Assembly (NCBI GenBank): GCA_964545915.1 | Contig: CAZJHQ010000013.1 | Location: 1,572 to 65,571, forward strand | Direction of reading: 5' to 3' | Length of the DNA stretch: 64,000 nucleotides | From: an uncultured Candidatus Kuenenia sp. | Lineage (GTDB): Bacteria; Planctomycetota; Planctomycetia; Pirellulales; UBA1268 | Part shown: positions 5,421-49,683 of the stretch, one piece after another | Position numbering within the stretch: position 1 is the first letter of the stretch | How the letters are laid out: each line of letters opens with the position of its first letter | Made by a program: the position numbers and the translations under genes | The notes under the pieces: model-generated | Databases searched by the model: none | What the model saw: the letters and a program-made list of their open reading frames with translations, nothing else | What the model was told of the DNA's origin: nothing

Positions 5421-5469
5421 TCCGCCGCTGGACGGCCGTTGGGGCCGGGGATACGATCATGGGTCCCAT

Positions 5470-5593
5470 CTGTCCGTGGAAAAAGCCCTCCAGGGCCTTT
5501 TTTCACATTGGCCGAGCGGTGGAAAAGCCAAGGTTTTCCACGCTCGGCTGGCGCCGCATCCTGCGGCGGCAGACGTGTGCCACAGTCTGCTAG
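5470..5593. repeat. MITE/REP-like palindromic element, copy 1 of 3
   Basis: Shares GTGGAAAAAGCC..GGCCTTTTT and CGCATCCTGC..GGCAGAC..CCACAG with 24397-24520 and 48957-49111. Confidence 0.75.
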
Positions 5594-5620
5594 CGCCCGA
5601 GTAGAACCGTAAGGATCCCC

Positions 5621-6200: not shown

Positions 6201-6266
6201 AGCCGGATTCCAGCAGCGACGATGCTCTGTCAAGCCACTCAGCGCACCATCCATAGGCGCACGCTC

Positions 6267-6337
6267 AGGGAATACGCGCCGCCTCACCGGAAACATGGCC
6301 GCATTCCCTCGGCTCACGCCTCGGGCTTCAAGGGCAC
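6267..6337. repeat. REP-like repeat family B (AGGGAAT..CCGGAAACATGGCCGCATTCCCTCGGCTCACGCCTCGGGCTTCAAGG)
   Basis: The same core occurs at about 12380-12450, 12774-12820 and 13149-13195. Confidence 0.8.
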
Positions 6338-6489
6338 AGGAGCGGAACTCCGGAGCAACGACGACGCCCTCTCCTGGAGCCGCGGCTTCCGACCTTCAAA
6401 TCCGGCATGTGGCTCCACCATCCGCATTCGCAAGCCTGGAGGCGTGCGCCACTGTAGCGGCGGTCTCCGACCATCGGTTTTGGCAGCCG

Positions 6490-12215: not shown

Positions 12216-12399
12216 AGGCGGTCGCACCTCCGGGCGACCGTGCCGCCGCGGAGCGGCGGCTCGACGACGCTTCGATCCGAGCCGCATTGGGCCGCAGCAC
12301 GCAGCGCGGCCTGCGGCCGCTGCGTGCGAGTCATCCGCGCACATCACGCCCGCTGCTAGGAAGCCCGAAGCGGAAGCTGAGGGAATACGCGGCGCCTTT

Positions 12400-13260
12400 C
12401 CGGAAACATGGCCGCATTCCCTCGGCTCACGCCTCGGGCTTCAAGGGCACCAAGGCGGAACCAAAAAAGAACAAAACAACCAACCACCGTCGTGACCCGC
12501 TGCCAGAAATCACGAAACGCAAAACAGCTCACGCTCGAGCCTCGCCCACGAACGGCTCCTGCACGCCAACCGTCAGGGCGGGGTTGCCCATGCCCCAGGA
12601 GCCGGCGTGGCTGACCAGCGGAGGCATGGATGCCGAAGCGCAGGCAGCCTCGAGAGAGCGGTGGCCACGATGGCCACCGCGAACGTCCGGCGATGGGGCG
12701 TGGGCAGCCCCGACCAGCGCCACGCATGAGGTTCACGTATGCTGCGTACGCTGCGGAAAGACGCGTCGCCTCACCGGAAACATGGCCGCATTCCCTCGGC
12801 TCACGCCTCGGGCTTCAAGGACACCAGGGCGGAACCAAAGAAGAACAAAACAACCAACGACCGTCGTGACCCGCTACCGGGAAAGCTTGAAGCGCCATGC
12901 GGCTCACGCTCGAGCCTCGCCCACGAATGGCTCCTGCACGCCAACGGTCAGGGCGGGGTTGCCCATGCCCCAGGAGCCGGCGTGGCTGACCAGCGGAGGC
13001 ATGGATGCCGAAGCGCAGGCAGCCTCGAGAGAGCGGTGGCCACGATGGCCACCGCGAACGTCCGGCGATGGGGCGTGGGCAGCCCCGACCAGCGCCACGC
13101 ATGAGGTTCACGTATGCTGCGTACGCTGCGGAAAGACGCGTCGCCTCACCGGAAACATGGCCGCATTCCCTCGGCTCACGCCTCGGGCTTCAAGGACACC
13201 AGGGCGGAACCAAAGAAGAACAAAACAACCAACGACCGTCGTGACCCGCTGCCGGGAAGC
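12400..13260. repeat. Tandem direct repeat, ~375-bp unit, ~2.3 copies
   Basis: The anchor ATGGCCGCATTCCC recurs at 12408, 12782 and 13157 (spacing 374/375). Identical translated fragments are offset by 375. Confidence 0.9.
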
Positions 13261-13277
13261 ACGAGGCGCAATACCGC

Positions 13278-14114
13278 TCACGCCTCCTCGCGGAGCAGCG
13301 GCGGGGGCTCCTCGAAGTCCTCGAGTTCCGGCGGGAGCTGCAGCTGCCGCATCGTCTCGTCGGTCTTCCGCATGCCCTCGGCCACCTCGTCCACCCGCTG
13401 GGCGATGTCGCTCACGTCACGCTTCGCCACGGAACCCTCCGCGAGGGCGGCGATCTTGGCCTCCAGCCGCTCGACCTCCGCTCCCACCACGTCGAGCTTC
13501 CGCCGCGCCTCCTCGATGTTGGCCAGCCGCTCGCGGCTCGTCTTCAGGTGGTCCTCGAGGGCCGCCCGCATCTGCGCATCCCCCTCCGCCGGCAGCCGCG
13601 CCAGCCGCCGCTCCAGGTCGGCGATCCGCGCCCGGATCGAGCCGTCGTCGGTGTGGTCGAGGAACTCGGAAAGATTGGCGGCCCCCCAGATCATCCGCAG
13701 ATAGCCCCACAGCAGCCTGTCCAGCGACTCGAGCGTGCCACCGTCGGGCCCGCGGGCGTCCGGCCCCCGCATGCTGCCGGCCAGTTCCAGCAGCTTCAGG
13801 CAATGGTCGCGGAGCTGGTCGAACCGGGCGAGCAGCGGCCGCGGCAGCCGCTTGCGAATCCGCTCGTAGGCCTCGCGGGCGCCGACGGCCTCGGCGGCAC
13901 GGCGGGCCTTGGCGCCCTGGGCCTCGACAGCGCTGCGGAACCGATCGTTGGCGAGCATGCTCGCCAGGTAGAAGACCTCGGCGGCGACCACCAAGGGCAG
14001 GACCACGCCGGGAAACCCGCTGATGAACGCCGCCGCGACGCCGCCACCGAAGAGGAGCAGGTTCCACTTCGTGGTGAAGGCGGTCTTCAGGTAGGCACCA
14101 AAACGCTCGAACAC
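13278..14114 (-). CDS. Membrane-anchored coiled-coil protein of unknown function (last gene of the PspA/AAA/ABC operon)
   Basis: Two N-terminal TM segments followed by a long charged helical region. The GTG start overlaps the upstream TAG. Confidence 0.8.
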   Translation of the reverse strand: MFERFGAYLKTAFTTKWNLLLFGGGVAAAFISGFPGVVLPLVVAAEVFYLASMLANDRFRSAVEAQGAKARRAAEAVGAREAYERIRKRLPRPLLARFDQLRDHCLKLLELAGSMRGPDARGPDGGTLESLDRLLWGYLRMIWGAANLSEFLDHTDDGSIRARIADLERRLARLPAEGDAQMRAALEDHLKTSRERLANIEEARRKLDVVGAEVERLEAKIAALAEGSVAKRDVSDIAQRVDEVAEGMRKTDETMRQLQLPPELEDFEEPPPLLREEA

Positions 14115-22663: not shown

Positions 22664-24400
22664 TTGAGTTTAGGACCAAAGCCACGGCCGCAATGTGTCG
22701 ATTGTATGAGTCGAGTTGCTTGCGCCGACTGTAGCAGTCGGGGCGGCGGTCCCGATTTCGTCAACCAGGGCGACATTTTCAGCATGAATCGTGTGTTGTC
22801 TGGCCTGATCGCTGGTCGACCTCGGTGGCGCGGGGCGCGGGGGTCGGCGGCGGGATGGCTCCTTGCGGCCGTTGCCTGCGGTGCAGCTCTGGTGGCGCTC
22901 GAGAGGCCCGGGCATGGCATCGAGTTCGCGACACTGCTCGACGAAGCTGCCGACGAACCAGCCGCCATCGTCGGTCCCTCGGCACTCTTCGATCCGGATC
23001 TGCTGCTCGCCCAGCAGATCCAGGATCCGGCCATCGAGACCGTCGACGAGATGACCCGTCGCGGTAGCGGTGGCGGCAGCGGTGGCGGCGACAGGAGTTC
23101 CCTTGGCGAGCAGGTTCGCGAGCGGTGGGACAAGATCCGCGATCCGGCCATCGAGACGGTCGACGAGCAGACCCGCAAGAAGGACGACAAAGACAAAAAA
23201 GACGACAAGAAAGAAAAAAAGAAGAAGGAGTGGTACGACCGGATCAACATCCGCGGCTACACGCAGTTTCGCATCAACAGCGTGCTCTGGGACGACGAGG
23301 ATCTCGCGCCCCCATACCTGCCGGGCGACCGCTCGGTGGCGCCGCTCAACCACTTCTTCATCCGCCGCTGTCGACTGATCTTCTCCGGTGACCTGAGCGA
23401 TCGACTGTTCTTCTACATCCAGCCCGATCTGGCGGGCACCGTGCCGGGGGCCCCGGAAGGGGCGATCAACTATCTGCAGCTCCGGGACTGCTACGGCGAC
23501 GTGTATCTCACGACCAACAAGGTGCACCGGGCGCGGGTCGGTCTGTCGAAGATTCCCTACGGCTGGGAGAACATGCAGTCGAGCTCCAATCGCATTCCGC
23601 TCGACCGCAGTGACTCGATGAACAGCGCCGTGCTGGGCGAGCGGCAATTGGGCGTCATCTATTACTGGACGCCCGAGTACGCACAGGACCTCTACAAGGA
23701 GGTGCTCGACGAGGGCCTGAAGGGCTCGGGCAACTACGGCGTGTTCGGCATCGGCGTCTACAACGGGCAGGGCGTGTCGAAGGCCGAGGCCAACAACAAC
23801 ATGCACATGGTGATGCGGCTCAGCTCACCGTGGAAGATGCCGGGCGGGCAAATCATGGAAGCGGGGGTGCAGGCCTACACCGGCCGCTACTCGTCTTACA
23901 CCGGGCCGATCGTCACCACGACCGGCACCGTCACGCCCGTCATCGAGCCACCGAACGGCGTCGTCGACGAGCGGATCGGGGCCACGTTCGTCTACTACCC
24001 GCAGCCGCTCGGATTCGTCACCGAATGGAACACGGGCAACGGCCCGGAACTCGGCCCGGTGAACCCGCCGACCCGCCCGGTGATCTCCAGCCAGCCGTTG
24101 TCGGGCGGCTACATCCTCGTGAACTACAAGATCGACAGCGAGAAATACGGCACGATTTTCCCCTACTTCCGCTGGCAGACCTATCGCGGCGGCTATCTCT
24201 GGGAACGCAACTCCCCGGCCACCTACCAGGGCAACTTCAACCTGGGCATGGAGTGGCAATTCACGCCCCAGATGGAGCTCACCTGGGAATACGCCTGGGT
24301 GAACCAGACGAACACCGGCTCCAACTACAAGATCATCAATGGCCAATTCGCCCAGTTCCAGGGCGACCTGCTCCGCTTCCAGTTCCAGATCAACTACTAG
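22664..24400 (+). CDS. Outer-membrane porin (OprO/OprP-like); start uncertain
   Basis: NIRGYTQFR, FFIRRCRLIFSG, YIQPD, GLSKIPYGWEN..SS.NR..LDRS and terminal FQFQINY. Confidence 0.75.
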   Translation: MSLGPKPRPQCVDCMSRVACADCSSRGGGPDFVNQGDIFSMNRVLSGLIAGRPRWRGARGSAAGWLLAAVACGAALVALERPGHGIEFATLLDEAADEPAAIVGPSALFDPDLLLAQQIQDPAIETVDEMTRRGSGGGSGGGDRSSLGEQVRERWDKIRDPAIETVDEQTRKKDDKDKKDDKKEKKKKEWYDRINIRGYTQFRINSVLWDDEDLAPPYLPGDRSVAPLNHFFIRRCRLIFSGDLSDRLFFYIQPDLAGTVPGAPEGAINYLQLRDCYGDVYLTTNKVHRARVGLSKIPYGWENMQSSSNRIPLDRSDSMNSAVLGERQLGVIYYWTPEYAQDLYKEVLDEGLKGSGNYGVFGIGVYNGQGVSKAEANNNMHMVMRLSSPWKMPGGQIMEAGVQAYTGRYSSYTGPIVTTTGTVTPVIEPPNGVVDERIGATFVYYPQPLGFVTEWNTGNGPELGPVNPPTRPVISSQPLSGGYILVNYKIDSEKYGTIFPYFRWQTYRGGYLWERNSPATYQGNFNLGMEWQFTPQMELTWEYAWVNQTNTGSNYKIINGQFAQFQGDLLRFQFQINY

Positions 24401-24520
24401 TTGTCCGTGGAAAAAGCCCTCCGTGGCCTTTTTCCACTTGATCGACCGCAGGAAACGCCGAGGGTTTCCTGGGTCGATGGCCATCGCATCCTGCTCGGGC
24501 AGACTTTTTCCACAGCCTAA
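24397..24520. repeat. MITE/REP-like palindromic element, copy 2
   Basis: Terminal inverted repeats CCGTGGAAAAAG...CTTTTTCCACAG; begins at the porin stop codon. Confidence 0.75.
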
Positions 24521-24634
24521 TGGCTGGCGAAGTCTGCCGCCGCTGGATGCGGCGACAGCTGCCCACCCGGTACACTACCGGTTCAGCGCCGATCGGCGCA
24601 TGAATCCCCCGCAGCCTGGTACGGAGACGCCCCC

Positions 24635-27044: not shown

Positions 27045-27315
27045 CGGGAAAATCAGGATCGCGTGGACGGCGAGATTCCCAAGACCGTTGACGCTGGCGA
27101 GCCTGGCAGGCCTCCTCGCCGCGAGAGACTCTGGCGGGGGGCAAGCCCTCGGCCCCGACCGGCCACGACGGCGGGCGGGCTGGCCGGCCTGGAAAAGCGA
27201 CCTTGGTTTTTCGGCCGCGAAAACGGTCCGTTGCCCGTGATCGGCCTGGCGCTCGCTTTACAGGATAGAGAACCGCATGGTGCGAGACTCACTATCCAAG
27301 AAGGAGCAGGCGATC

Positions 27316-28326
27316 ATGGGCGGCATTGCAACGACTTCCCTGGACTCGGCGGCCAGGCCGGGGCGGCTTTTGGACCGGATTCGGCACGCGGCACGGTTGC
27401 GGCATTTGGCGACCAGCACCGAGAAGGCCTACGTGCACTGGGCGAAGCGGTTCGTGCTTTTTCACGGCCGCAGGCATCCGCAGGACATGGCTGAACCAGA
27501 GGTCAACGCCTTCCTGACACACCTGGCCGTCCACGAGCACGTCGCGGCTTCGACGCAGAACCAGGCCTTGGCGGCATTGCTTTTCCTGTACGCGAAAGTT
27601 CTCGGCCGGCCTCTGGAGCGCATGGAAGGCATCGTCCGTGCAAAACGGCCCAAGCGGCTGCCGGCCGTCCTCACGCCAGACGAGGTGCGTCGTGTTCTGG
27701 AATGCATGACCGGGGAGCACTGGCTGGTGGCCATGCTGCTGTACGGCGCCGGGCTGCGGCTCCTTGAGGCCCTACGATTGCGGGTCAAGGACATCGACAT
27801 GACGCACAACGTCCTCACGATCCGGGAGGCCAAAGGCAACAAGGACCGGGTCACCGTGCTTCCCTCCTGCCTGCGGGATCCGCTCGGCCGGCATCTCCAG
27901 CACCGTAGGCGGCAGCACGTGGCGGAGGTTGAAGCCGGTCGGGGCCGCGTGATGCTGCCCAAAGCCTTCGCGCGCAAGCATCCGAATGCCGAACTGGACT
28001 GGGCCTGGCAATGGGTGTTCACCGGCAAGAGTGACTTTCGTGACCGTGAAACGGGCCGCTTTTACCGCCATCACATCCACGAGACGGTGATTCAGCGGGC
28101 GGTTCGCGAGGCAGTGATCCGCGCGGGAGTCGAGCGGCGGGCGACCTGCCATACGCTGCGACACTCGTTCGCGACCCATCTCCTCCAGGATGGGGCCGAC
28201 ATCCGCACGGTGCAGGATCTCCTGGGCCACAACGACGTGAAGACGACGATGATCTACACGCACGTGCTCAACCGCGGAGGCGTGTCTGTTCGCAGCCCGG
28301 CGGACCGATTGGGGCTGGGGCAATGA
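27316..28326 (+). CDS. intI: Integron integrase
   Basis: [36 protein letters not shown] and [12 protein letters not shown], plus the IntI-specific insert [32 protein letters not shown]. Confidence 0.95.
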
Positions 28327-28559: not shown

Positions 28560-28613
28560 GCGTTATCCAGCGGCAACCGAGTTTATACGGAACCGTAGAA
28601 TTACAAGTTAGGC
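28560..28613 (+). other. Putative attI site
   Basis: GTTAGGC (28607-28613) lies just before the first cassette ORF and is complementary to that cassette's R'' GCCTAAC. Nearby are the palindrome TACGGAACCGTA and the direct repeat TTATCCAGCGG. Confidence 0.7.
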
Positions 28614-28616
28614 GTC

Positions 28617-28910
28617 ATGAGCACTCCTGCCATTGAGATTCGTCCGTGGAGAGAGTGCCCGTTCACACGCGGCAGGCAGTATCGCGTCCGCCAGAGCTTC
28701 GCCGCATTGCGTGACTCCTTCACCGCCGGTGACATTCTCACCTTCGATTCCGACGCCTGGTCTCGATACGATGGCATTACTGGTTATTTTTTCCGACAAC
28801 CGTGCCGAGAGCGGCTGCGTGTGTGGGACATTGATGACGATGCAGACATCCAGATATGGAGAGAGCTTTTTGAGGAGCTGTCAGACACATTCACCCACAA
28901 CAACGCCTAA
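28617..28910 (+). CDS. Gene cassette 1: hypothetical protein (97 aa)
   Basis: The ORF fills the space between GTTAGGC and GCCTAAC; its stop lies inside the R'' box. Confidence 0.8.
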   Translation: MSTPAIEIRPWRECPFTRGRQYRVRQSFAALRDSFTAGDILTFDSDAWSRYDGITGYFFRQPCRERLRVWDIDDDADIQIWRELFEELSDTFTHNNA

Positions 28911-29245
28911 CCTTCTAAGGATTTGAGTTCGCGAAGCCGAACCTCAAATCCTCTGTTCAAGAAGCCCGGTGCCCCTGCGAGTGAGCCGCAGCGCTAGGGT
29001 AACGGTGGGCAGCGGAGCTGCCGCTAGAGTGTCACGGAGAGCGTGACGGCCGCCCGCTGGTGCTGATCGGCCTTGGCGACTGGGCTTTGAAGCCGTGCAG
29101 CGGGCTGACGGAGTGGTGTTGTGTGCGCGTCGCCGCGCACCGGCAGCGTTGAAAACCATGATGAGCGCGTACCGCGTCCGAGTCGCGACGAGCGCGATGA
29201 AAGACGGGAACGGTGATGACGGCGTGGCGCACTGGTGGCATCCGG

Positions 29246-30349
29246 TCAGCTCGTGTCGTGGATGGCAGAGGCGCGTTTGGGGAAGATGGCGACGACCCGC
29301 AGTTGTCCGCCGCACTCGCAGCAGCGTCGCGCCGGGAGGACGGGGGTGTCGGCAGCGGTCGTGGCGAGCAGCAGGAACTGTTCGCCGTTATTGAGCGTGA
29401 CGAGCCAGCGGACGGCTTCGATCGATATGGGGGCGTGTGCTCCCAGGAACCCGTAGTGCCGCACCTTCTGAAAGCCGCTTGGCAATACATGCTGAAGGAA
29501 GCGGCGGATGAACTCCATGGCATGGAGGGTCATCCTCCGCCAGCGGTTGGATCCGCTCCTGCGGTAGTAGAACGTGACCGTGTGGTCGTCGCAGGCGACG
29601 ATGCGGTGATCGCTGATGCCGACGCGGAACACGTAGGTCGCCAGATACTTCAGCGACATGCGGCCGTCGCCGACGGCTTTTGAGTGGACGACCCAGGCCC
29701 GTTTCCAGGCGGCCGGATCGACTTGCTCGAGCAGACCCGCCTTGCGGAGTTCCTCGCGGAACTTGGCCCGAAACAGGATCGACAACGCCTTGACCGGCAG
29801 GAAGAACGCCGGTCCGGAAGCGATCCAGGAGTTGCCATCAGCGGCGACGGCTCCGCCGGGCACGACGTAGTGGACGTGAGGGTGGTAGCCGAGGGTGCGA
29901 TCCCAGGTGTGGAGCACGCCGAAGAAGCCGGGCTGAGCGTCGCCGAGGAATCGCTTGTCGGCGGCGAGGGCCTGGATGGCCTTGCTCGACGCGTGGAAGA
30001 GAGCGGCGTAGACGGCGCGAGGGTTGCCCCGCGCCAGGCACCTCAGCTCGGAGGGCAGCGTGAACGTGAGCAGAAAATACGGGCAGGGCAGCAGGCGCGA
30101 AGTCTGTTTCTCGAGCCAGGCCCTGGTCTTCTCCTGCTGGCATGTCGGACAGTGCCGGTTGCCGCAGGATCGTCCCATGACATGGCTGCCGCCGCAGGTG
30201 GTGCAGGCGTACTGCACCTTCCCCAGCGCTCCGGTCCGGCAGGCACGGATGGCGCCGAGCACCTGGCGATGCAGGGGCGGCATCCGCGTGCCGAACCGGT
30301 CGAGATACTCCCCGCCATGCCGCCGCAGCACCTCGGCGACGGTCGGCAT
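29246..30349 (-). CDS. IS91-family Y2/HUH transposase with Zn-binding N-terminus
   Basis: CTTCG..SCGNRHCPTC, HTW..YHPHVH (HUH), YLATY (Y2) and FLQHVLP.GFQKVRHYG. Confidence 0.92.
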   Translation of the reverse strand: MPTVAEVLRRHGGEYLDRFGTRMPPLHRQVLGAIRACRTGALGKVQYACTTCGGSHVMGRSCGNRHCPTCQQEKTRAWLEKQTSRLLPCPYFLLTFTLPSELRCLARGNPRAVYAALFHASSKAIQALAADKRFLGDAQPGFFGVLHTWDRTLGYHPHVHYVVPGGAVAADGNSWIASGPAFFLPVKALSILFRAKFREELRKAGLLEQVDPAAWKRAWVVHSKAVGDGRMSLKYLATYVFRVGISDHRIVACDDHTVTFYYRRSGSNRWRRMTLHAMEFIRRFLQHVLPSGFQKVRHYGFLGAHAPISIEAVRWLVTLNNGEQFLLLATTAADTPVLPARRCCECGGQLRVVAIFPKRASAIHDTS

Positions 30350-30356
30350 GGCGCTA

Positions 30357-31235
30357 TTACTGCATGATCCGCTCGATGGCTTCGCGGGCGAGTTCCTGCC
30401 CGGTGGACGTGAGGTGCAGGTAGATCATGGTCGTCTGCAGGGAGCTGTGGCCCAGGTACTGCTGGATGAGCCGCAGGTTGACGCCCGCTTCGAGCAGATG
30501 GGTCGCGTAGCTGTGCCGCAGGGTGTGGACGCAGACTGACTTGCGGAAGCCGAGCTGCGCGACGACCTGCCGCATCGCCCCTTGCACGCTGCTGGCGGCC
30601 ATCGGGCTGGTCGCGGTGGACGCGTGTACGCGTCCCCGACCGAGGGCGGGAAACAAGAGCCGCGGATGGCGATGGGTGGCCCAATGCGCACGCAACGTCG
30701 CGAGCGTGCGGGCTGGCAGCGGGACGAACCGATCCTTGGCCCCCTTGCCACGGTGCACGTGGACGAGCATGCGGGCACTGTCGATGTCGCCCAGCTCCAG
30801 GGCCAGCCCTTCCTGAAGCCTCAGGCCTAGCGAGTAGACGGTCCAGAGGAAGGCACGGTTGTGCGGGGTGCGGACGGCGTCGAGCAGCCGATGCACCTCG
30901 TCGACGGTCAGCACGTCGGGCAGCGTCTTCTGCTTGGGGACGCGGAGCTTGAGGAGCGTGGCCCAGTCCCGCGGCACGCAGTGGGTGTAGAAGAACTTGA
31001 TGCCGCTGTGGGCGATCTTGAGGGCGCTGGGAGAGAACCGGCGGTCGTTCTTGAGGTACAGGAAGTAGTCGCGGACCTGCGGCTCGGTGAGCCGGTCCGG
31101 GCACTGGCGGTAGTGGTCCGCCAGCTTTCGCACGGCACGGACATAGGCTTCCTGGGTGCGTTCGCTGCGGCCTGCGAGCTGGAGGTCCTGGATCATCCGC
31201 TGACGCAGCGCGGTCGTGGGGCGAGGAGCGATCAT
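30357..31235 (-). CDS. Tyrosine recombinase (SAM-like N-terminus) carried by the IS91-like element
   Basis: YSLGLRLQE, GKGAKDR, HTLRHSYATHLL and LGHSSLQTTMIY. Confidence 0.92.
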   Translation of the reverse strand: MIAPRPTTALRQRMIQDLQLAGRSERTQEAYVRAVRKLADHYRQCPDRLTEPQVRDYFLYLKNDRRFSPSALKIAHSGIKFFYTHCVPRDWATLLKLRVPKQKTLPDVLTVDEVHRLLDAVRTPHNRAFLWTVYSLGLRLQEGLALELGDIDSARMLVHVHRGKGAKDRFVPLPARTLATLRAHWATHRHPRLLFPALGRGRVHASTATSPMAASSVQGAMRQVVAQLGFRKSVCVHTLRHSYATHLLEAGVNLRLIQQYLGHSSLQTTMIYLHLTSTGQELAREAIERIMQ

Positions 31236-31324
31236 CGTGAAAACCTTTCGCAAAGGAGGAAGAAAAACCCTTGCGAGCGACGATGATTGCGGCGATGGCA
31301 CGTGGCCACCGAGGCCGGTCACGC

Positions 31325-31353
31325 CTGAAAGGCCGGGGCGATCCGGCTACAAT
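31325..31353 (+). promoter_or_regulatory. Putative outward-facing sigma70 promoter at the terIS end (also at 34689-34717)
   Basis: CTGAAA-17 nt-TACAAT, pointing out of the element into the next cassette. Confidence 0.55.
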
Positions 31354-31389
31354 GAGCGGGCTGAAAGCAGCCTGCCGCGGAGCGGCTTA

Positions 31390-31478
31390 CTTGAACCACC
31401 CGATGCAATGGACTCGCGGCAGCGTCCAGCGGGATGGATAATTCCGTGGTCGCGAGCCATTGATCGGGGCCGTTCGCT
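31390..31478 (+). other. attC1 (R'' rebuilt from the IS end; original R'' GCCTAAC at 28905-28911)
   Basis: GAAC-caccc-GAT[G]CAATGG[A]CTCGCG...CGCGAGCCATTGATC..GTTCGCT forms an imperfect hairpin with two extrahelical bases. Confidence 0.85.
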
Positions 31479-32253: not shown

Positions 32254-32609
32254 CCGAGTGCCAGGAAGAGCGAACCTTCTAAGGATTTGAGTTCGCGAAG
32301 CCGAACCTCAAATCCTCTGTTCAAGAAGCCCGGTGCCCCTGCGAGTGAGCCGCAGCGCTAGGGTAACGGTGGGCAGCGGAGCTGCCGCTAGAGTGTCACG
32401 GAGAGCGTGACGGCCGCCCGCTGGTGCTGATCGGCCTTGGCGACTGGGCTTTGAAGCCGTGCAGCGGGCTGACGGAGTGGTGTTGTGTGCGCGTCGCCGC
32501 GCACCGGCAGCGTTGAAAACCATGATGAGCGCGTACCGCGTCCGAGTCGCGACGAGCGCGATGAAAGACGGGAACGGTGATGACGGCGTGGCGCACTGGT
32601 GGCATCCGG

Positions 32610-33713
32610 TCAGCTCGTGTCGTGGATGGCAGAGGCGCGTTTGGGGAAGATGGCGACGACCCGCAGTTGTCCGCCGCACTCGCAGCAGCGTCGCGCCGGG
32701 AGGACGGGGGTGTCGGCAGCGGTCGTGGCGAGCAGCAGGAACTGTTCGCCGTTATTGAGCGTGACGAGCCAGCGGACGGCTTCGATCGATATGGGGGCGT
32801 GTGCTCCCAGGAACCCGTAGTGCCGCACCTTCTGAAAGCCGCTTGGCAATACATGCTGAAGGAAGCGGCGGATGAACTCCATGGCATGGAGGGTCATCCT
32901 CCGCCAGCGGTTGGATCCGCTCCTGCGGTAGTAGAACGTGACCGTGTGGTCGTCGCAGGCGACGATGCGGTGATCGCTGATGCCGACGCGGAACACGTAG
33001 GTCGCCAGATACTTCAGCGACATGCGGCCGTCGCCGACGGCTTTTGAGTGGACGACCCAGGCCCGTTTCCAGGCGGCCGGATCGACTTGCTCGAGCAGAC
33101 CCGCCTTGCGGAGTTCCTCGCGGAACTTGGCCCGAAACAGGATCGACAACGCCTTGACCGGCAGGAAGAACGCCGGTCCGGAAGCGATCCAGGAGTTGCC
33201 ATCAGCGGCGACGGCTCCGCCGGGCACGACGTAGTGGACGTGAGGGTGGTAGCCGAGGGTGCGATCCCAGGTGTGGAGCACGCCGAAGAAGCCGGGCTGA
33301 GCGTCGCCGAGGAATCGCTTGTCGGCGGCGAGGGCCTGGATGGCCTTGCTCGACGCGTGGAAGAGAGCGGCGTAGACGGCGCGAGGGTTGCCCCGCGCCA
33401 GGCACCTCAGCTCGGAGGGCAGCGTGAACGTGAGCAGAAAATACGGGCAGGGCAGCAGGCGCGAAGTCTGTTTCTCGAGCCAGGCCCTGGTCTTCTCCTG
33501 CTGGCATGTCGGACAGTGCCGGTTGCCGCAGGATCGTCCCATGACATGGCTGCCGCCGCAGGTGGTGCAGGCGTACTGCACCTTCCCCAGCGCTCCGGTC
33601 CGGCAGGCACGGATGGCGCCGAGCACCTGGCGATGCAGGGGCGGCATCCGCGTGCCGAACCGGTCGAGATACTCCCCGCCATGCCGCCGCAGCACCTCGG
33701 CGACGGTCGGCAT
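32610..33713 (-). CDS. IS91-family Y2/HUH transposase (copy 2)
   Basis: Identical protein to 29246-30349. Confidence 0.92.
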   Translation of the reverse strand: MPTVAEVLRRHGGEYLDRFGTRMPPLHRQVLGAIRACRTGALGKVQYACTTCGGSHVMGRSCGNRHCPTCQQEKTRAWLEKQTSRLLPCPYFLLTFTLPSELRCLARGNPRAVYAALFHASSKAIQALAADKRFLGDAQPGFFGVLHTWDRTLGYHPHVHYVVPGGAVAADGNSWIASGPAFFLPVKALSILFRAKFREELRKAGLLEQVDPAAWKRAWVVHSKAVGDGRMSLKYLATYVFRVGISDHRIVACDDHTVTFYYRRSGSNRWRRMTLHAMEFIRRFLQHVLPSGFQKVRHYGFLGAHAPISIEAVRWLVTLNNGEQFLLLATTAADTPVLPARRCCECGGQLRVVAIFPKRASAIHDTS

Positions 33714-33720
33714 GGCGCTA

Positions 33721-34599
33721 TTACTGCATGATCCGCTCGATGGCTTCGCGGGCGAGTTCCTGCCCGGTGGACGTGAGGTGCAGGTAGATCATGGTCGTCT
33801 GCAGGGAGCTGTGGCCCAGGTACTGCTGGATGAGCCGCAGGTTGACGCCCGCTTCGAGCAGATGGGTCGCGTAGCTGTGCCGCAGGGTGTGGACGCAGAC
33901 TGACTTGCGGAAGCCGAGCTGCGCGACGACCTGCCGCATCGCCCCTTGCACGCTGCTGGCGGCCATCGGGCTGGTCGCGGTGGACGCGTGTACGCGTCCC
34001 CGACCGAGGGCGGGAAACAAGAGCCGCGGATGGCGATGGGTGGCCCAATGCGCACGCAACGTCGCGAGCGTGCGGGCTGGCAGCGGGACGAACCGATCCT
34101 TGGCCCCCTTGCCACGGTGCACGTGGACGAGCATGCGGGCACTGTCGATGTCGCCCAGCTCCAGGGCCAGCCCTTCCTGAAGCCTCAGGCCTAGCGAGTA
34201 GACGGTCCAGAGGAAGGCACGGTTGTGCGGGGTGCGGACGGCGTCGAGCAGCCGATGCACCTCGTCGACGGTCAGCACGTCGGGCAGCGTCTTCTGCTTG
34301 GGGACGCGGAGCTTGAGGAGCGTGGCCCAGTCCCGCGGCACGCAGTGGGTGTAGAAGAACTTGATGCCGCTGTGGGCGATCTTGAGGGCGCTGGGAGAGA
34401 ACCGGCGGTCGTTCTTGAGGTACAGGAAGTAGTCGCGGACCTGCGGCTCGGTGAGCCGGTCCGGGCACTGGCGGTAGTGGTCCGCCAGCTTTCGCACGGC
34501 ACGGACATAGGCTTCCTGGGTGCGTTCGCTGCGGCCTGCGAGCTGGAGGTCCTGGATCATCCGCTGACGCAGCGCGGTCGTGGGGCGAGGAGCGATCAT
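33721..34599 (-). CDS. Tyrosine recombinase of the IS91-like element (copy 2)
   Basis: Identical protein to 30357-31235. Confidence 0.92.
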   Translation of the reverse strand: MIAPRPTTALRQRMIQDLQLAGRSERTQEAYVRAVRKLADHYRQCPDRLTEPQVRDYFLYLKNDRRFSPSALKIAHSGIKFFYTHCVPRDWATLLKLRVPKQKTLPDVLTVDEVHRLLDAVRTPHNRAFLWTVYSLGLRLQEGLALELGDIDSARMLVHVHRGKGAKDRFVPLPARTLATLRAHWATHRHPRLLFPALGRGRVHASTATSPMAASSVQGAMRQVVAQLGFRKSVCVHTLRHSYATHLLEAGVNLRLIQQYLGHSSLQTTMIYLHLTSTGQELAREAIERIMQ

Positions 34600-34753
34600 C
34601 GTGAAAACCTTTCGCAAAGGAGGAAGAAAAACCCTTGCGAGCGACGATGATTGCGGCGATGGCACGTGGCCACCGAGGCCGGTCACGCCTGAAAGGCCGG
34701 GGCGATCCGGCTACAATGAGCGGGCTGAAAGCAGCCTGCCGCGGAGCGGCTTA

Positions 34754-34841
34754 CTTGAACAAAGCGATGCAGCGGACTCGCGATAAAATCCGGCGGTGTG
34801 GTTCGTCCAAGGCTGCGAGCCGCTGATCGCGGCCGTTCGCA
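34754..34841 (+). other. attC2 (R'' rebuilt from the IS end; original R'' AGCGAAC at 32269-32275)
   Basis: GAAC-aaagc-GAT[G]CAGCGG[A]CTCGC...GCGAGCCGCTGATC..GTTCGCA. Confidence 0.85.
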
Positions 34842-34857
34842 GTTGCCGAGTTATTGC

Positions 34858-35286
34858 ATGCACTCCATCGCGACAATCATGCTCCTCATCGTCGCGGCCA
34901 TTCACGTGCTGCCCCTAATGGGAGCATTCGGTGAAAAGCATCTTTCCGGGCTGTACGGCATTTCTATCGCTGATCCGAACCTTGCCATATTGATGCGCCA
35001 CAGGGCGGTGCTCTTCGGCCTTCTCGGAGCATTTCTATTCGTCGCCGCTCTTGTTCCTCCCCTGCGACTCGCGGGCTTGGTTGCGGGTGCCGTCAGCGTG
35101 GGCTCATTCCTACTGCTTGCTTGGCACGTGGGTGGCTACAACGACCACCTGCGCAAAGTGTTTGCGACTGACGTGATTGCCGCTATGTGCCTCGCATGCG
35201 GACTGCTCGCCCATCTCGCGAACGGCAGTCTTGGCACAGCCAGCGTGTTGCCAGCCAATGTGCCCTCTGTGGTCGTCGAGGAGTAA
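34858..35286 (+). CDS. Gene cassette 3, ORF a: small multi-pass membrane protein
   Basis: Four hydrophobic segments and an LMRHRAVLFGLLG motif; starts just after GTTCGCA. Confidence 0.75.
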   Translation: MHSIATIMLLIVAAIHVLPLMGAFGEKHLSGLYGISIADPNLAILMRHRAVLFGLLGAFLFVAALVPPLRLAGLVAGAVSVGSFLLLAWHVGGYNDHLRKVFATDVIAAMCLACGLLAHLANGSLGTASVLPANVPSVVVEE

Positions 35287-35293
35287 CGCGACA

Positions 35294-35932
35294 ATGACTC
35301 CCCATGGACCACCATGCGGCGACGCCCCGACGGCGGAGGCTCCGCAGGCCGTGCCGACGAAAAAACGCATTCTCGCAATGCTCGCCAACCTTCGCGGGGA
35401 AGGTCTCGAACTCTGGCGACGCATGGAAGCGGAACGATTCTGGTCTCGGCACGATCGCAAGTGGTCGCCGGCAGACAATGTTCATCATCTCATGATCTCG
35501 ACGGCGCCGGTGACGCTGGCCTTGCGCATTCCGCGACTCATGCTTCGAGTATGCTTCGGTATGACACGCACGCCATCCCGAAACTGGGAGGCGTTGCGGT
35601 CTGCCTATCGTGACGGACTTGCGGCTGGGGCTACGGCTGGCCGCTATGCACCTCCTCGCAAAGCGGTTCCGGTCGAAGCGGCTGCCGACCAGGGTCGACT
35701 CGTCCTCCAGTGTGAGGGCACGGTTCTCAGGTTGGAGAAAGCAATTGAGCCCTGGCGCGAGCAGAATCTAGATCGCTATCGGCTGCCTCATCCTGTCTTG
35801 GGACGGGTGACGGTGCGGGAGATACTGATGTTCACGCTGTTTCACTTTGATCATCACCGCGAGATTGTGGCTCGGCGACTGGAAGCTTCCCGCCTGTCGG
35901 GTCTTGCCGAAAGGATTCCGACCAATGCTTGA
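35294..35932 (+). CDS. Gene cassette 3, ORF b: DinB-like protein
   Basis: WSPADNVHHL and HPVLGRVTVREILMFTLFHFDHH are a DinB_2-type His pattern. Followed by R'' TGCGAAC (35951-35957). Confidence 0.7.
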   Translation: MTPHGPPCGDAPTAEAPQAVPTKKRILAMLANLRGEGLELWRRMEAERFWSRHDRKWSPADNVHHLMISTAPVTLALRIPRLMLRVCFGMTRTPSRNWEALRSAYRDGLAAGATAGRYAPPRKAVPVEAAADQGRLVLQCEGTVLRLEKAIEPWREQNLDRYRLPHPVLGRVTVREILMFTLFHFDHHREIVARRLEASRLSGLAERIPTNA

Positions 35933-35958
35933 AGTCGTAGGGAAGCGCAATGCGAACC

Positions 35959-37524
35959 TCTCTATGGCCTCTGAAGTCAAGTAGGCGCACCGGTATCGTC
36001 GACCTCGAAACATTTTCATTTTTCCAGCCGATCTTCGGCTTTTTGTGTTTCGGGTTCGAGCGGGGCTGGCAGCGGGCCCTGACCGGTCGGCGACGCGGAA
36101 TCCTTCTTCATCGGGAGTCGGGCGTGCCAGGTGCGTCCTGACACGACCGCGCCAAACATCTCTCTGAGGCTCGGCCGCAGACCTGGGTGCCCGTGAGGTG
36201 TCACCCTGGGTGCGGTGCATGATCAGGCCTGTGTTCAGGCCCGGTCGCACGCAGGCGAGCCGCCGCCAGGCGGCGAGTCCTGCGTGAAGACCATGCGTCC
36301 TCGAAGTTCATCCGTTCGTTCCCAGCGGCTATTCAAAGCGTCGAGTGCGTGCTCGAGGCACGCCTCCGTTCAGGTCGGCTCGTGAGACCGGCGGTCGCGT
36401 GTGTATTGGGTCAGTGCTTCGTGCTCATCTCCCTGTGTGTGCTCGTGAATGGTGGCGGGCGCTGGCCGGTGGCTCTTCCAAGAAAGTGAGTCGGCGGTCT
36501 TCGGCACGGCACTGGGGCGGAAGGAGGTGGAGCCACAGGCTCCTCCTCCTTCGGGCGGTCAGGGGGGGTTCGTGTACCGTCTCTTCTGTAAATCACCGGT
36601 AGGGGCCTGACCGAGTCGAGCGTAGGAGACGAACTGCCCGATGTTCTCTAAGCGGTTCACGTCCCGGATCTCGTAGAGCATCACCAGCGACAGCACCTTG
36701 CCAACGCCGGTGATCGTCTGCAGCAGGTGCAGCCGCGCCGGGTCGTGCACCTTGGCGTGCTTGAGGACGTGGGTCTCGAGCCTGGCGATCGTCTCGTCGA
36801 GCTGCTTGATGACATCGATGTCGGCGTCCAGCATCACCTGCACGCTCGTGTCCTCGAAGGCGGACATGGCGATGCCCTCTCGCACTCTGTCCCGCCCCTT
36901 GCCGCTCGTGGTCGGCACGTTGTCCTGCGTGTGGGTGTTCTGCACGTGGGCGAGCAGTTCGGCCCGCCTGCGGACGAGCAGGGTCCGCCGCCGCAGCAGG
37001 TCGCGGGTGCCCCGCATCTCCTTGGGGTACACGTGCGCCAGTGGAAACGTGCCACCGCGCAGGAGCCTGGCGATCTTCTCGGAGTCGATGCGATCGTTCT
37101 TCGCCTTCCCGCCGTGGATCGCCTTCATGTACAGGGCGTGGCCGAGCACGAACTCGATTCCCTCCGCCCGGCACCAGTCGGCAAGCCAGTACCAGGAAAA
37201 CATGCACTCGGCCCCGACCACGAGGCTCGCCCGGTAGGGTGCCAGGGCCCGCTTCAGGGGATCGGGCTCGGCCCGCATGTTGCGGTGCAGGACGACGTTG
37301 CCTTGGTCGTCGAGGATGCAGACGTACATCTTGCTCGCGTGGAGATCGATGCCGCAGTAGAATCGCCGCTGTTCACGATAAAACCTCATCATGGCCCTCC
37401 TGCTGGTGCGTGACGGTGAGCCTCGTTGCCGACAACGCTTCGGCACAAATGACGCCGAGCCCCGAGCTCGTCACGGGTTTATAGGACTCCGTCGCCCCCA
37501 TGCAGGAGGCCATGATGAGCATCC
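35959..37524 (-). mobile_element. Defective IS110-family (IS1111-type) element inserted in attC3
   Basis: Subterminal inverted repeats ATGGCCTC (35964-35971) and GAGGCCAT (37506-37513), a long non-coding region 3' of tnp, and TTGACT near the right end. Confidence 0.8.
36559..37392 (-). pseudogene. IS110-family transposase, C-terminally truncated
   Basis: DEDD N-terminus (CGIDLH, VVGAE, KNDRIDS) and LLQTITGVG. It breaks at SYARL, where a foreign GQAPTGDLQ tail replaces the catalytic-Ser region. Confidence 0.8.
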
Positions 37525-48956: not shown

Positions 48957-49111
48957 TATAGCTGCCTGTGGAAAAAGCCATCCATGGCCTTTTTCCACTT
49001 GAGCGACCGCAGGATTCGCAAACCGAAGGCGCAGCCGAGGCAACGCCGAGGGTTTCCTGGGTCGCTGGCCGTCGCATCCTGCTCGGGCAAACTTGTTCCA
49101 CAGTCTGCTAG
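48957..49111. repeat. MITE/REP-like palindromic element, copy 3 (with a ~30-bp internal insertion)
   Basis: CTGTGGAAAAAGCCATCCATGGCCTTTTTCCAC ... TTCCACAGTCTGCTAG. Confidence 0.75.
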
Positions 49112-49683
49112 CCGGAAAGCTCATCCGGTTCAGCGAGAATCTCGGCGAGCAGGGTCTTCAGGCCCAGGAGGCCCGCGAGGCGATCGAGTTCGGGACGTTC
49201 CGCCGCCGGCATGAGCCGCACGATCTGCCGCAGATCACGGCGGCTCTTGTGGCTTCCCTTCGCCGCCCACGCCAGTTTCGACGCCGCGGCGTCGGGTCTC
49301 GACACCACCGGGAGCGACAGGCCCTCGAAGACCTCGAGGTGGATCGAGCGGTCCAATTCCCCCGGAATCATTTCCCGCGGGTAGACGTCGATCTTCAGCG
49401 CTTCCTGCAGGTCGAAGAGCTGAAACATCGACCGGTCAGCGACGGCCCTGCGCACGGCGTCGGTATCGAGTAGGAAGCCGGCCTCCGTGGCGGCGGCCAG
49501 GAAGGCATCGAGGCAGCGGGCCAGCGCCGGGTTGTCGACCACGAGATCGATATCCTGCGTCATCCGCGGCTCGCCGTAGGCCACGCTCGTAATGCCGCCG
49601 GTGAGATGAAACCGCACGGCGTGACGGGTCAGGATGGCGAGCAGCCGCGACAGCGTGTCACGAAAGATCTCAGCCGGATACAT
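49108..49683 (-). CDS. Nucleotidyltransferase-fold protein, putative toxin
   Basis: LTGG..SVAYGEPRMTQDIDLVV (polbeta-like GG..DxD), SKLAW and SRRDL. Confidence 0.7.
   Translation of the reverse strand: MYPAEIFRDTLSRLLAILTRHAVRFHLTGGITSVAYGEPRMTQDIDLVVDNPALARCLDAFLAAATEAGFLLDTDAVRRAVADRSMFQLFDLQEALKIDVYPREMIPGELDRSIHLEVFEGLSLPVVSRPDAAASKLAWAAKGSHKSRRDLRQIVRLMPAAERPELDRLAGLLGLKTLLAEILAEPDELSG

Follow-up and report, generated by a model that had tools for sequence, protein, structure and literature searches.

What becomes of an integron attachment site (attC) when a mobile element lands exactly at its edge, and can the site left behind still serve the integron? The question is raised by a 64,000-nt stretch of DNA from an uncultured Candidatus Kuenenia sp. 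(contig CAZJHQ010000013.1, positions 1,572 to 65,571; hereafter the window), which has a GC content of ~0.68 and carries a chromosomal integron with two copies of an IS91-type insertion sequence (IS) within its cassette array. An earlier note on this DNA had read the top strand of the element as ending in CTTGAAC at its terIS end, which is true of both copies (31390-31396 and 34754-34760), and had proposed that this end brings in a new R''-like AAC box, regenerates a complete attC, and so lets the IS ride as cargo of the upstream cassette. We favor, with moderate confidence, a different account in which a mobile element that mimics attC inserts conservatively and in exact register, the rebuilt attC being the right-hand product.

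Behind the terminal CTTGAAC, each rebuilt site has a 5-nt spacer (CACCC at the first site and AAAGC at the second), an L'' box (GATGCAATGG-A-CTCGCG and GATGCAGCGG-A-CTCGCG, respectively), and, past L', a 6-nt spacer followed by R' (GTTCGCT at 31472-31478 and GTTCGCA at 34835-34841); the order of AAC, 5 nt, and L'' is that of the intact attC at 38254-38343, whose L'' is also GATGCAATGG. On the bottom strand, both sites are predicted to form an R box of 4 bp, a bulge, and an L stem in which two extrahelical bases, T and C, are spaced 6 nt on the 3′ arm, the first bulged base being C where G is usual. Both sites have an R'' ending in AAC, an R' starting with GTT, imperfect L''/L' repeats, bottom-strand extrahelical bases, and unpaired spacers of 5 and 6 nt, and in these predictions they keep every conserved attC feature. 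The proposed regeneration of a complete attC thus holds for the triplets, the spacers, the bulged L box, and the loop, but not for the R''/R' complementarity, which extends over ~7 nt in attC sites generally and is confined here to GAAC and GTTC (4 bp). The R'' boxes of cassettes 1 and 2 are each 7/7 complementary to the cassette starts (GCCTAAC at 28905-28911 to the attI-side GTTAGGC, and AGCGAAC to GTTCGCT), so the cassette boundaries are canonical; these native sites pair 7/7 in circular form, and hybrid sites in the array are often as short as the rebuilt ones. The predicted pairing probability of the 4-bp R box in the rebuilt array sites is ~0.83-0.85, compared with ~0.67 for the 3-bp box of the cassette 1 site in its pre-insertion array form, ~1.0 for the 6-bp box of cassette 2 in the same form, ~0.18 for the intact attC, and ~0.15 for an excised circle of gene 1 plus IS. 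By this prediction, the rebuilt R box is not inferior to that of either the cassette 1 pre-insertion site or the intact attC.

Three attCs were found in both IS-free and occupied forms (L-numbers denote public contigs or loci, X-numbers denote metagenome runs, and a slash within a sequence marks a junction or crossover). The cassette 1 attC, which copy 1 occupies in the window, reads GCCTAAC/CACCC GATGCAATGG in L111, where cassette 1 lies downstream of another cassette and not of attI. The attC upstream of cassette 2 reads GGCGGAAC CACCC... in L118, and CTTGAAC CACCC... with the same body in L116, L117, and L120. Cassette 2's own attC is AGCGAAC/CAGGC GTTGGAGCAG... (GTTGGAG) when IS-free, and the occupied right junction, CTTGAAC CAGGC GTTGGAG, is present in three metagenomes. 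From these pairs, insertion adds 2,485 bp with no loss and turns one AAC into two. Among related copies from many phyla, 53 of 60 have an identical triplet at both junctions, and this, together with the IS-free alleles of the three attCs, indicates that the rebuilt geometry is not due to chance.

The IS does not simply bring a new AAC, because the block has an AAC on its left edge as well (28909-28911) and the triplet is common to element and target. In one Nitrospirota genome, three copies agree over ~2,433 nt, except that L024 differs in the initial base of its left triplet; since this is the sole difference, the equivalent base, the C in the AAC that adjoins the host spacer, is target-derived, and sequence comparison indicates that this AAC is at least partly (at least in its C) the host's own. 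The spacer and L'' geometry that the earlier note described therefore stands at both sites, but the supply of AAC by terIS does not. Variants at the other junction (GAT, GTG, GGT, and AAT) are consistent with exchange directly past the initial triplet base (N/TT). A simple 3-bp target duplication was also considered as a full account, and is ruled out by mixed triplets (L011, L024, L078, L071, L083, and L023b).

The second rebuilt site shares this geometry, but its body is not that of cassette 2: positions 34761-34841 match, at 81 of 81 positions, the IS-free attC (R'' TGCGAAC) of a 76-aa cassette that lies upstream of cassette 3 in L092. Because this body sits IS-free behind TGCGAAC in L092, the stretch between the IS end, CTTGAA/C, and the other R'', TGCGAA/C, must have been lost in the window, either when two IS copies recombined homologously or through an R''-side exchange.

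Table 1. Coordinates of the integron, the IS91-type element, and the rebuilt sites in the window
Feature	Position	Strand	Remarks
intI, integron integrase, apparently intact	27277-28326	+	TIGR02249 450 bits (cutoff 265), full-length; Pfam Phage_int_SAM_4 and Phage_integrase
attI core GTTAGGC, start of cassette 1	28607-28613	+	crossover G/TT at 28607/28608
Cassette 1 open reading frame (ORF), 97 aa	28617-28910	+	without family assignment; stop codon inside R''
Left hybrid site	28905-28961	+	host R'' GCCTAAC, IS CTTCT, IS hairpin 28917-28952, CT, GTTCAAG 28955-28961
IS91-family element, copy 1	28909-31396	-	2,485 bp plus 3-nt triplet common with target
tnpA, HUH Y2 transposase, IS91 family	29246-30349	-	NF033538 369 bits (cutoff 125); PF04986, PF14319
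int, Xer/IntI-like tyrosine recombinase of the element	30357-31235	-	PF13495 and PF00589
terIS-side end: palindrome GCCGC-GGA-GCGGC, TTA, CTTGAAC	31374-31396	+	reverse complement NTTCAAGTAAGCCGC nearly invariant in relatives
Rebuilt attC 1: CTTGAAC, CACCC, L''...L', GGGGCC, GTTCGCT	31390-31478	+	from sequence and bottom-strand fold; empty-site allele L111
Cassette 2 ORF, SseB-like, 255 aa	31486-32253	+	PF07179, PF14581
R'' of cassette 2, AGCGAAC	32269-32275	+	7/7 complementary to GTTCGCT at 31472-31478
IS91-family element, copy 2	32273-34760	-	identical to copy 1
Rebuilt attC 2, chimera: IS end CTTGAAC, AAAGC GATGCAGCGG...GCGGCC GTTCGCA	34754-34841	+	from sequence and fold; body from another cassette's attC
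Uninterrupted attC, sole one in array	38254-38343	+	reference geometry; ACGGAAC CACGC GATGCAATGG...GTTCGGC
Solo hairpin module (50 nt), without IS body	39489-39543 (to ~39565)	+	95% identical to the element's hairpin; then GTTCAAC, AACCC, and just the 5′ half of an attC

The two copies of the element are 100% identical over 2,488 bp, are bounded by AAC on both sides, and form direct repeats 3.4 kb apart. Their membership of the IS91 family is supported by an HUH Y2 transposase with an N-terminal zinc-binding domain, by unlike ends that lack terminal inverted repeats, with terIS upstream and oriIS downstream of tnpA, and by subterminal palindromes, namely GCCGC-GGA-GCGGC at the upstream end and a conserved hairpin at the downstream end. 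The element departs from the family in its target; insertion is not 3′ of GTTC/CTTG but at the AAC of R'', with a 3-nt redundancy, the target flanks seen being GCCT, AGCG, or GCGG followed by AAC, and CTTG and GTTC occurring only within the terminal 7-mers of the element itself. Its two ends have the forms NTT-CAAGTAAGCCGC... and ...CTTGAAC, 1-4 nt, hairpin, 4-7 nt, NTT. When the ends are joined, as they would be in a circle, the junction reads CTTGAAC, CTTCT (5 nt), an imperfect hairpin, CT (2 nt), and GTTCAAG, and it folds with a 7-bp R-box-like stem (p 0.85-0.98), so that the joined ends are predicted to mimic attC in their AAC/GTT triplets, bulged spacers, and bulged stem. The int gene lies directly upstream of tnpA in the same orientation, and the pair is present in every locus inspected. 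The element Int and the host IntI are 31% identical and have the same two domains; their alignment has a gap of ~35 aa at the IntI-specific additional domain, and Int scores below the cutoff of the integron-integrase model (TIGR02249: 168 vs 265 bits), which places it outside the integron integrases.

Homologs of TnpA number more than 7,900, mostly on contigs of ~2.5 kb, as expected because the element is a repeat, and we compared the element ends in 80 genome loci and nine metagenome loci. Both the end NTTCAAGTAAGCCGC and the motif CTTCTTGAAC ahead of the terminal hairpin are nearly invariant across many phyla, even where TnpA identity falls to 46%; both 7-mers and the hairpin persist in relatives whose TnpA is 46-89% identical, which come from Planctomycetota, Nitrospirota, Desulfobacterota, Patescibacteria, and other groups. 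Reading the hairpin arms sequence by sequence reveals compensatory stems (GGATTTGAG with CTCAAATCC, GGATTGGAG with CTCCAATCC, GATAGAG with CTCTATC, and GGTTTGA with TCAAACC), and in three sequences a C-to-T change in CTTGAAC accompanies a G-to-A change in the triplet (ATT). In a MAFFT alignment of the junctions, misaligned hairpin columns limited RNAalifold to the R-box stem. To score the flanks we used constrained folding with random GTT sites as control, in place of a simple arm-matching attC search that missed even the window's own sites because of their bulged bases; 28 of the 63 distinct flanks gave an attC-type bottom-strand fold ending ~5 nt before GTT, compared with 12% of the control sites. 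Since the bulged bases always lie on the 3′ arm, insertion into the attC-like flanks is always at the R'' end and always antisense. Other copies among the relatives occupy non-attC sites, including eight near-identical copies with an ATT triplet in AT-rich DNA. The best matches in a plasmid search were distant entries (41-44% identity) annotated 'IS91 family transposase', some with a neighboring integrase. As judged from these sequences, the elements of a large group, apparently not yet described, generally insert with this precision and leave a complete-looking attC.

Several loci have element ends in other arrangements. In L009, a 2,462-bp JGI contig, the element is flanked on the left by its own right end (AATCCTCAGTAG/GTTCAAG) and on the right by a repeat of the hairpin loop, with a single GTT, which would represent a head-to-tail arrangement, the junction of a circle, or one copy nested in another; this junction is the only hint in the family of rolling-circle transposition through a single-stranded circle. 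In L047, the IS is inserted at the GTT past the hairpin of another copy. The solo hairpin module of the window lies at the array end, adjoining the tRNA-His gene, and modules of GAAC, hairpin, and GTT, single or in tandem, occur past the IS ends in L029, L033, and L085 (887-1002). Such modules could come from deletion between GTTCAA/G and CTTGAA/C, or from abortive transposition. We also considered the solo hairpin as an ancestral target of a smaller, GTTC-to-CTTG rolling-circle unit and rejected this, as the hairpin travels with the element (72-78% nucleotide identity) and the flanks diverge directly past the hairpin end.

We propose that the HUH transposase makes a single-stranded circle of the element, that the circle junction folds into the attC mimic, and that the element's own tyrosine recombinase most likely performs the exchange with the R'' end of an attC. 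Strand exchange would take place inside the triplet (AA/C on the + strand and G/TT on the element sense strand), as the mirror image of the cassette reaction, and both junctions would become hybrid attC-like sites, analogous to attL and attR, with the rebuilt attC arising as a by-product of the insertion mechanism. In host attCs the element is inserted at the R'' AAC, always antisense to the cassettes, with the triplet present on both sides afterwards. We favor this scheme because of the junction fold, the L009 junction, the kinship of Int and IntI, the formation by IS91 of single-stranded circles of which only the bottom-strand circle inserts (PMC13181058), and the shift of the crossover to R'' when attC top strands recombine, as VCR top strands do without extrahelical bases (PMC2727003). 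More tentatively, the elements may constitute a very large, cross-phylum, two-enzyme family (HUH transposase plus Xer/IntI-like recombinase) of 'mirror-image cassettes', with attC-mimic ends, integration at the R'' box by way of the strand and end left unused by IntI, two hybrid attC-like sites as the outcome, and R''-side deletion or exchange of cassettes, which would act on arrays as a second recombination system encoded by a parasite.

Several observations weigh against this proposal: the acting enzyme is assigned from its sequence; placement of the crossover within the triplet depends on one clean case and on single-copy variants; the mimic has a 2-nt 5′ spacer rather than one of 5-6 nt, and one bulged base in place of two; C stands opposite A, a mismatch, in three sequences for which covariation is claimed; and, among the relatives, about half of the insertions are at sites unlike attC. 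A scheme with HUH rolling-circle transposition as the only reaction accounts for nearly all junctions, failing only on L024 and the solo modules. The transposase would nick 3′ of an xAAC located 5 nt upstream of a hairpin, in its own oriIS or in the attC top strand that mimics it, and stop at the terIS GAAC, leaving the recombinase some other role such as resolution. This agrees with a transposase that is clearly of the IS91 family, with the match to IS91 in terIS/oriIS layout, subterminal palindromes, and a target signal flanking oriIS (PMC13181058), with the AAC, 5-nt, hairpin geometry shared by the IS left end and attC, and with the insertion at AAT of elements that have an AAT terminus; most junction variants also fall on the side that the scheme calls target-derived, and the 7-mer past the hairpin could serve as a guide. 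We nevertheless consider it improbable, as L024 would require an otherwise identical copy to have mutated precisely at its terminal base, solo modules end in an unpredicted GTTCAA+C, the known targets of the family are GTTC/CTTG, and Int is co-conserved with tnpA in every locus examined. The element could also be an integron cassette that the host IntI put in backwards on an attC top strand: on its own sense strand it is bounded by G/TT with an attC-like site at its 3′ end, and top-strand events do cross over in R'' (PMC2727003). Many copies, up to eight per genome, are in AT-rich non-attC sites, however, the element encodes both a recombinase and a transposase, and it is found only at the R'' end, with no copy in the R' orientation, so that we give this explanation very little credence.

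Whatever the mechanism, the rebuilt sites raise two competing predictions for the host integrase, neither of which we think likely as a whole. The claim that terIS brings a new R'' AAC, that the attC is fully recombinogenic, and that IntI excises and reintegrates gene and IS as one cassette is supported by rebuilt sites that have lost no conserved attC feature and whose 4-bp R box lies inside the native array range or exceeds it, by an intact IntI, and by the turnover of first-position cassettes in nature. The IS-bearing cassette 1 occupies the attI-proximal slot with its IS-free allele internal (L111), R''-L'' is essential and only AAC/GTT is conserved (PMC2727003), and an IS110-family element in the same array, by contrast, splits R'' from L''. 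This reading is nonetheless doubtful, because at least the C of AAC is host-derived and AAC is already present in IS-free alleles, new insertions at attI explain the cassette 1 positions equally well, the R box of the excised gene 1 plus IS circle is weak (p ~0.15), R' is GTTA... in most hosts, leaving only 3 bp, the left hybrid site could compete, and the sole rearrangement seen, the copy 2 flank, is on the R'' side. Neither a circle nor a relocated gene plus IS unit was found in assembled contigs. Alternatively, insertion may disable attC for IntI, through the weak R box and a competing IS hairpin, so that cassettes are fixed and change later by homologous recombination between IS copies or by R''-side deletions. 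This would fit the two 100% identical direct repeats 3.4 kb apart, the reduction of cassette 2 R-box pairing from 6-7 bp to 4 bp, the direct run of cassettes 1 and 2 into the IS in all public contigs and unitigs of the window type, and copy 2, which joins the cassette 2 R'' to another attC body with loss of the CTTGAA/C-to-TGCGAA/C stretch. Against this, native hybrid R boxes in the array are no stronger, only AAC/GTT is conserved among attCs, and fixed linkage in a few related populations may simply mean recent insertion.

Returning to the proposed conservative insertion, IntI can probably fold and cut the right-hand rebuilt site, albeit with a weaker R box (4 bp here and 3 bp in most hosts). 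The IntI cleavage point at R' is ~75 nt away from the insertion, and gene plus IS lie formally between two G/TT crossover points. As R''-L'' is essential for attC function and only AAC/GTT is conserved among attCs (PMC2727003), IntI activity on the site, and with it gene plus IS cassettes, is plausible on the predicted folds. Excision of gene plus IS would follow from the mechanism itself; the suggestion that the arrangement exists so that the IS can ride lacks support, as junctions of the same form occur at non-attC targets and follow from the element's own attC-like junction. The left hybrid site (host R'', IS hairpin, and GTTCAAG) could act as a second attC-like site that separates gene and IS.

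No circle, skip, or go-back junction at R' was found in assembled contigs, and Logan contigs from eight metagenomes contained no IS-free allele, circle, or R'-type skip for cassettes 1 and 2, an absence that means little because the runs are kept as unitigs. The chimeric copy 2 flank is a rearrangement on the R'' side and not the predicted R'-side excision. In natural populations (X16, X19, and X20), attI GTTA(GGC) has at least five alternative downstream sequences, so the first cassette varies among strains; cassette 1 is present at a fraction of the attI depth (e.g., 50 vs 279-933 in X20), and cassette 2 is ~2x as abundant as cassette 1 in three runs. The right end of the IS (window position 31398) is also joined to CAGGC GTTGGAGCAG..., a cassette 2-type attC, in X10, X11, and X20, several further left flanks exist, and the IS depth is 2-3x the flank depth in metagenome runs. 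Arrays in the wild are polymorphic and contain an active element. X20 also joins 28609/28610 to 31393/31394, in two contigs with the sequences attI ...ACAAGTT/GAAC CACCC GATGCAATGG... and ...GTTA/AAC CACCC.... Deletion of cassette 1 plus IS was rejected as an explanation for these attI-TTGAAC and attI-TTAAAC joints, which continue into an attC body unlike that of the window; either attI recombined with the C/TTGAAC end of an IS, or an ORF-less attC lies directly after attI.

Other elements are known to target attC. The IS1111-attC group (ISPa21, ISPst6, and ISKpn4; IS110/IS1111) inserts near the 5′ (R'') end in antisense orientation and through a circular intermediate (PMC3001079; PMC11187229). 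The target end and orientation are shared with the present element, whereas the IS1111-attC group uses a DEDD transposase with a seekRNA guide and has no HUH enzyme or tyrosine recombinase; the HUH Y2 element has no DEDD transposase. The array itself carries two copies of an IS110-family element (NF033542, DEDD_Tnp_IS110; 35958-37523 and 38835-~39430, one of them internally deleted and truncated), both at the boundary of R'' AAC and spacer of an attC (TGCGAAC/.../CAGGC and GTCGAAC/...) and antisense to the cassettes. They split R'' from L'' and leave no AAC beside the spacer, in contrast to the complete site left by the IS91-type element. Cassette 3 (34836-35957) is followed by the IS110-family element in 11 of 11 public contigs, with four different attCs upstream. 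Group IIC-attC introns likewise insert near the attC 5′ end on the antisense strand and recognize the folded site (PMC3001079; PMC7923331), so that attC end and orientation are the same; they are retroelements (ribozyme plus reverse transcriptase), however, and leave no AAC redundancy or attC-like junction.

IS91 itself lacks a classical target duplication and requires a flanking target signal next to oriIS (PMC13181058). With IS91, IS801, IS1294, and ISCR the element shares the transposase family (NF033538), the placement of terIS upstream and oriIS downstream of tnpA, and the subterminal palindromes, but those elements use a tetranucleotide target, GTTC/CTTG, and have no recombinase gene, whereas the present element targets the AAC of a structured attC, has terminal 7-mers complementary to each other, and always carries an Xer/IntI-like gene. 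Some IS91-family members in ISfinder have an upstream phage-integrase ORF (ISShvi3, ISAzo26, ISSde12, ISWz1, ISMno23, and ISCARN110), and we liken this subgroup to the element by its two-gene layout, not by sequence. In the literature we found no published analysis of target, ends, or mechanism for integrase-bearing IS91 members, and, for the targeting of attC by IS91-type elements, nothing more than a single remark on ISShvi3 adjoining an attC (PMC9229058). Cassette recombination through attC top strands resembles insertion of the element in crossing over in the R'' AAC with an inverted insert, but it is a rare side reaction of IntI, whereas in the element it would be the regular, orientation-specific mode of a dedicated recombinase. 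Phages of the CTX-phi type provide no more than an analogy, in which the single-stranded phage circle forms a hairpin resembling a recombination site and XerCD, a Xer-type tyrosine recombinase, integrates it through one pair of strand exchanges; the present element encodes its own recombinase. The element appears to be a new variant among attC-targeting elements, and by the folding models the riding of the IS is plausible.

All cassettes lie on the + strand, and the array ends near the tRNA-His gene (40321-40395). One cassette has two genes, a 157-aa ORF (37623-38096), which is PIN-toxin-like by eye and has no Pfam match, and a small overlapping ORF (38093-38245); these may be a toxin-antitoxin pair, which would stabilize the array. 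Two repeats in the window are of other kinds. A tandem array at 12370-13283, unrelated to the integron, has a period of ~375 bp and units of 165-300 nt (78-97% identity), with a more distant copy at 6257-6421. An intergenic repeat of ~130 nt occurs in three copies (5467-5597, 24398-24527, and 48959-49115; 64-87% identity), holds a GTGGAAAAAGCC...GGCCTTTTTCCAC hairpin, and may be a terminator-like or REP-like element.

Remodeling of cassette arrays has so far been credited almost only to IntI acting at R'. The recognized parasites that seek out attC are the IS1111-attC elements and the group IIC-attC introns, and the element described here would be a third kind with a different chemistry, present in thousands of copies in environmental bacteria, which leaves attC formally intact and may act on its R'' end. 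By combining an HUH transposase and an Xer/IntI-like recombinase with a junction that resembles attC, the element also offers a way of testing what the so far unexplained integrase ORF in certain IS91 members does. Programs that find attC sites would score the rebuilt sites as normal and overlook the insertion. Should the rebuilt sites be functional, a 2.5-kb transposon can travel with the cassettes; if they fail, the element freezes cassettes and later removes them by its own recombination. Either outcome alters how cassette turnover in chromosomal integrons is to be read.

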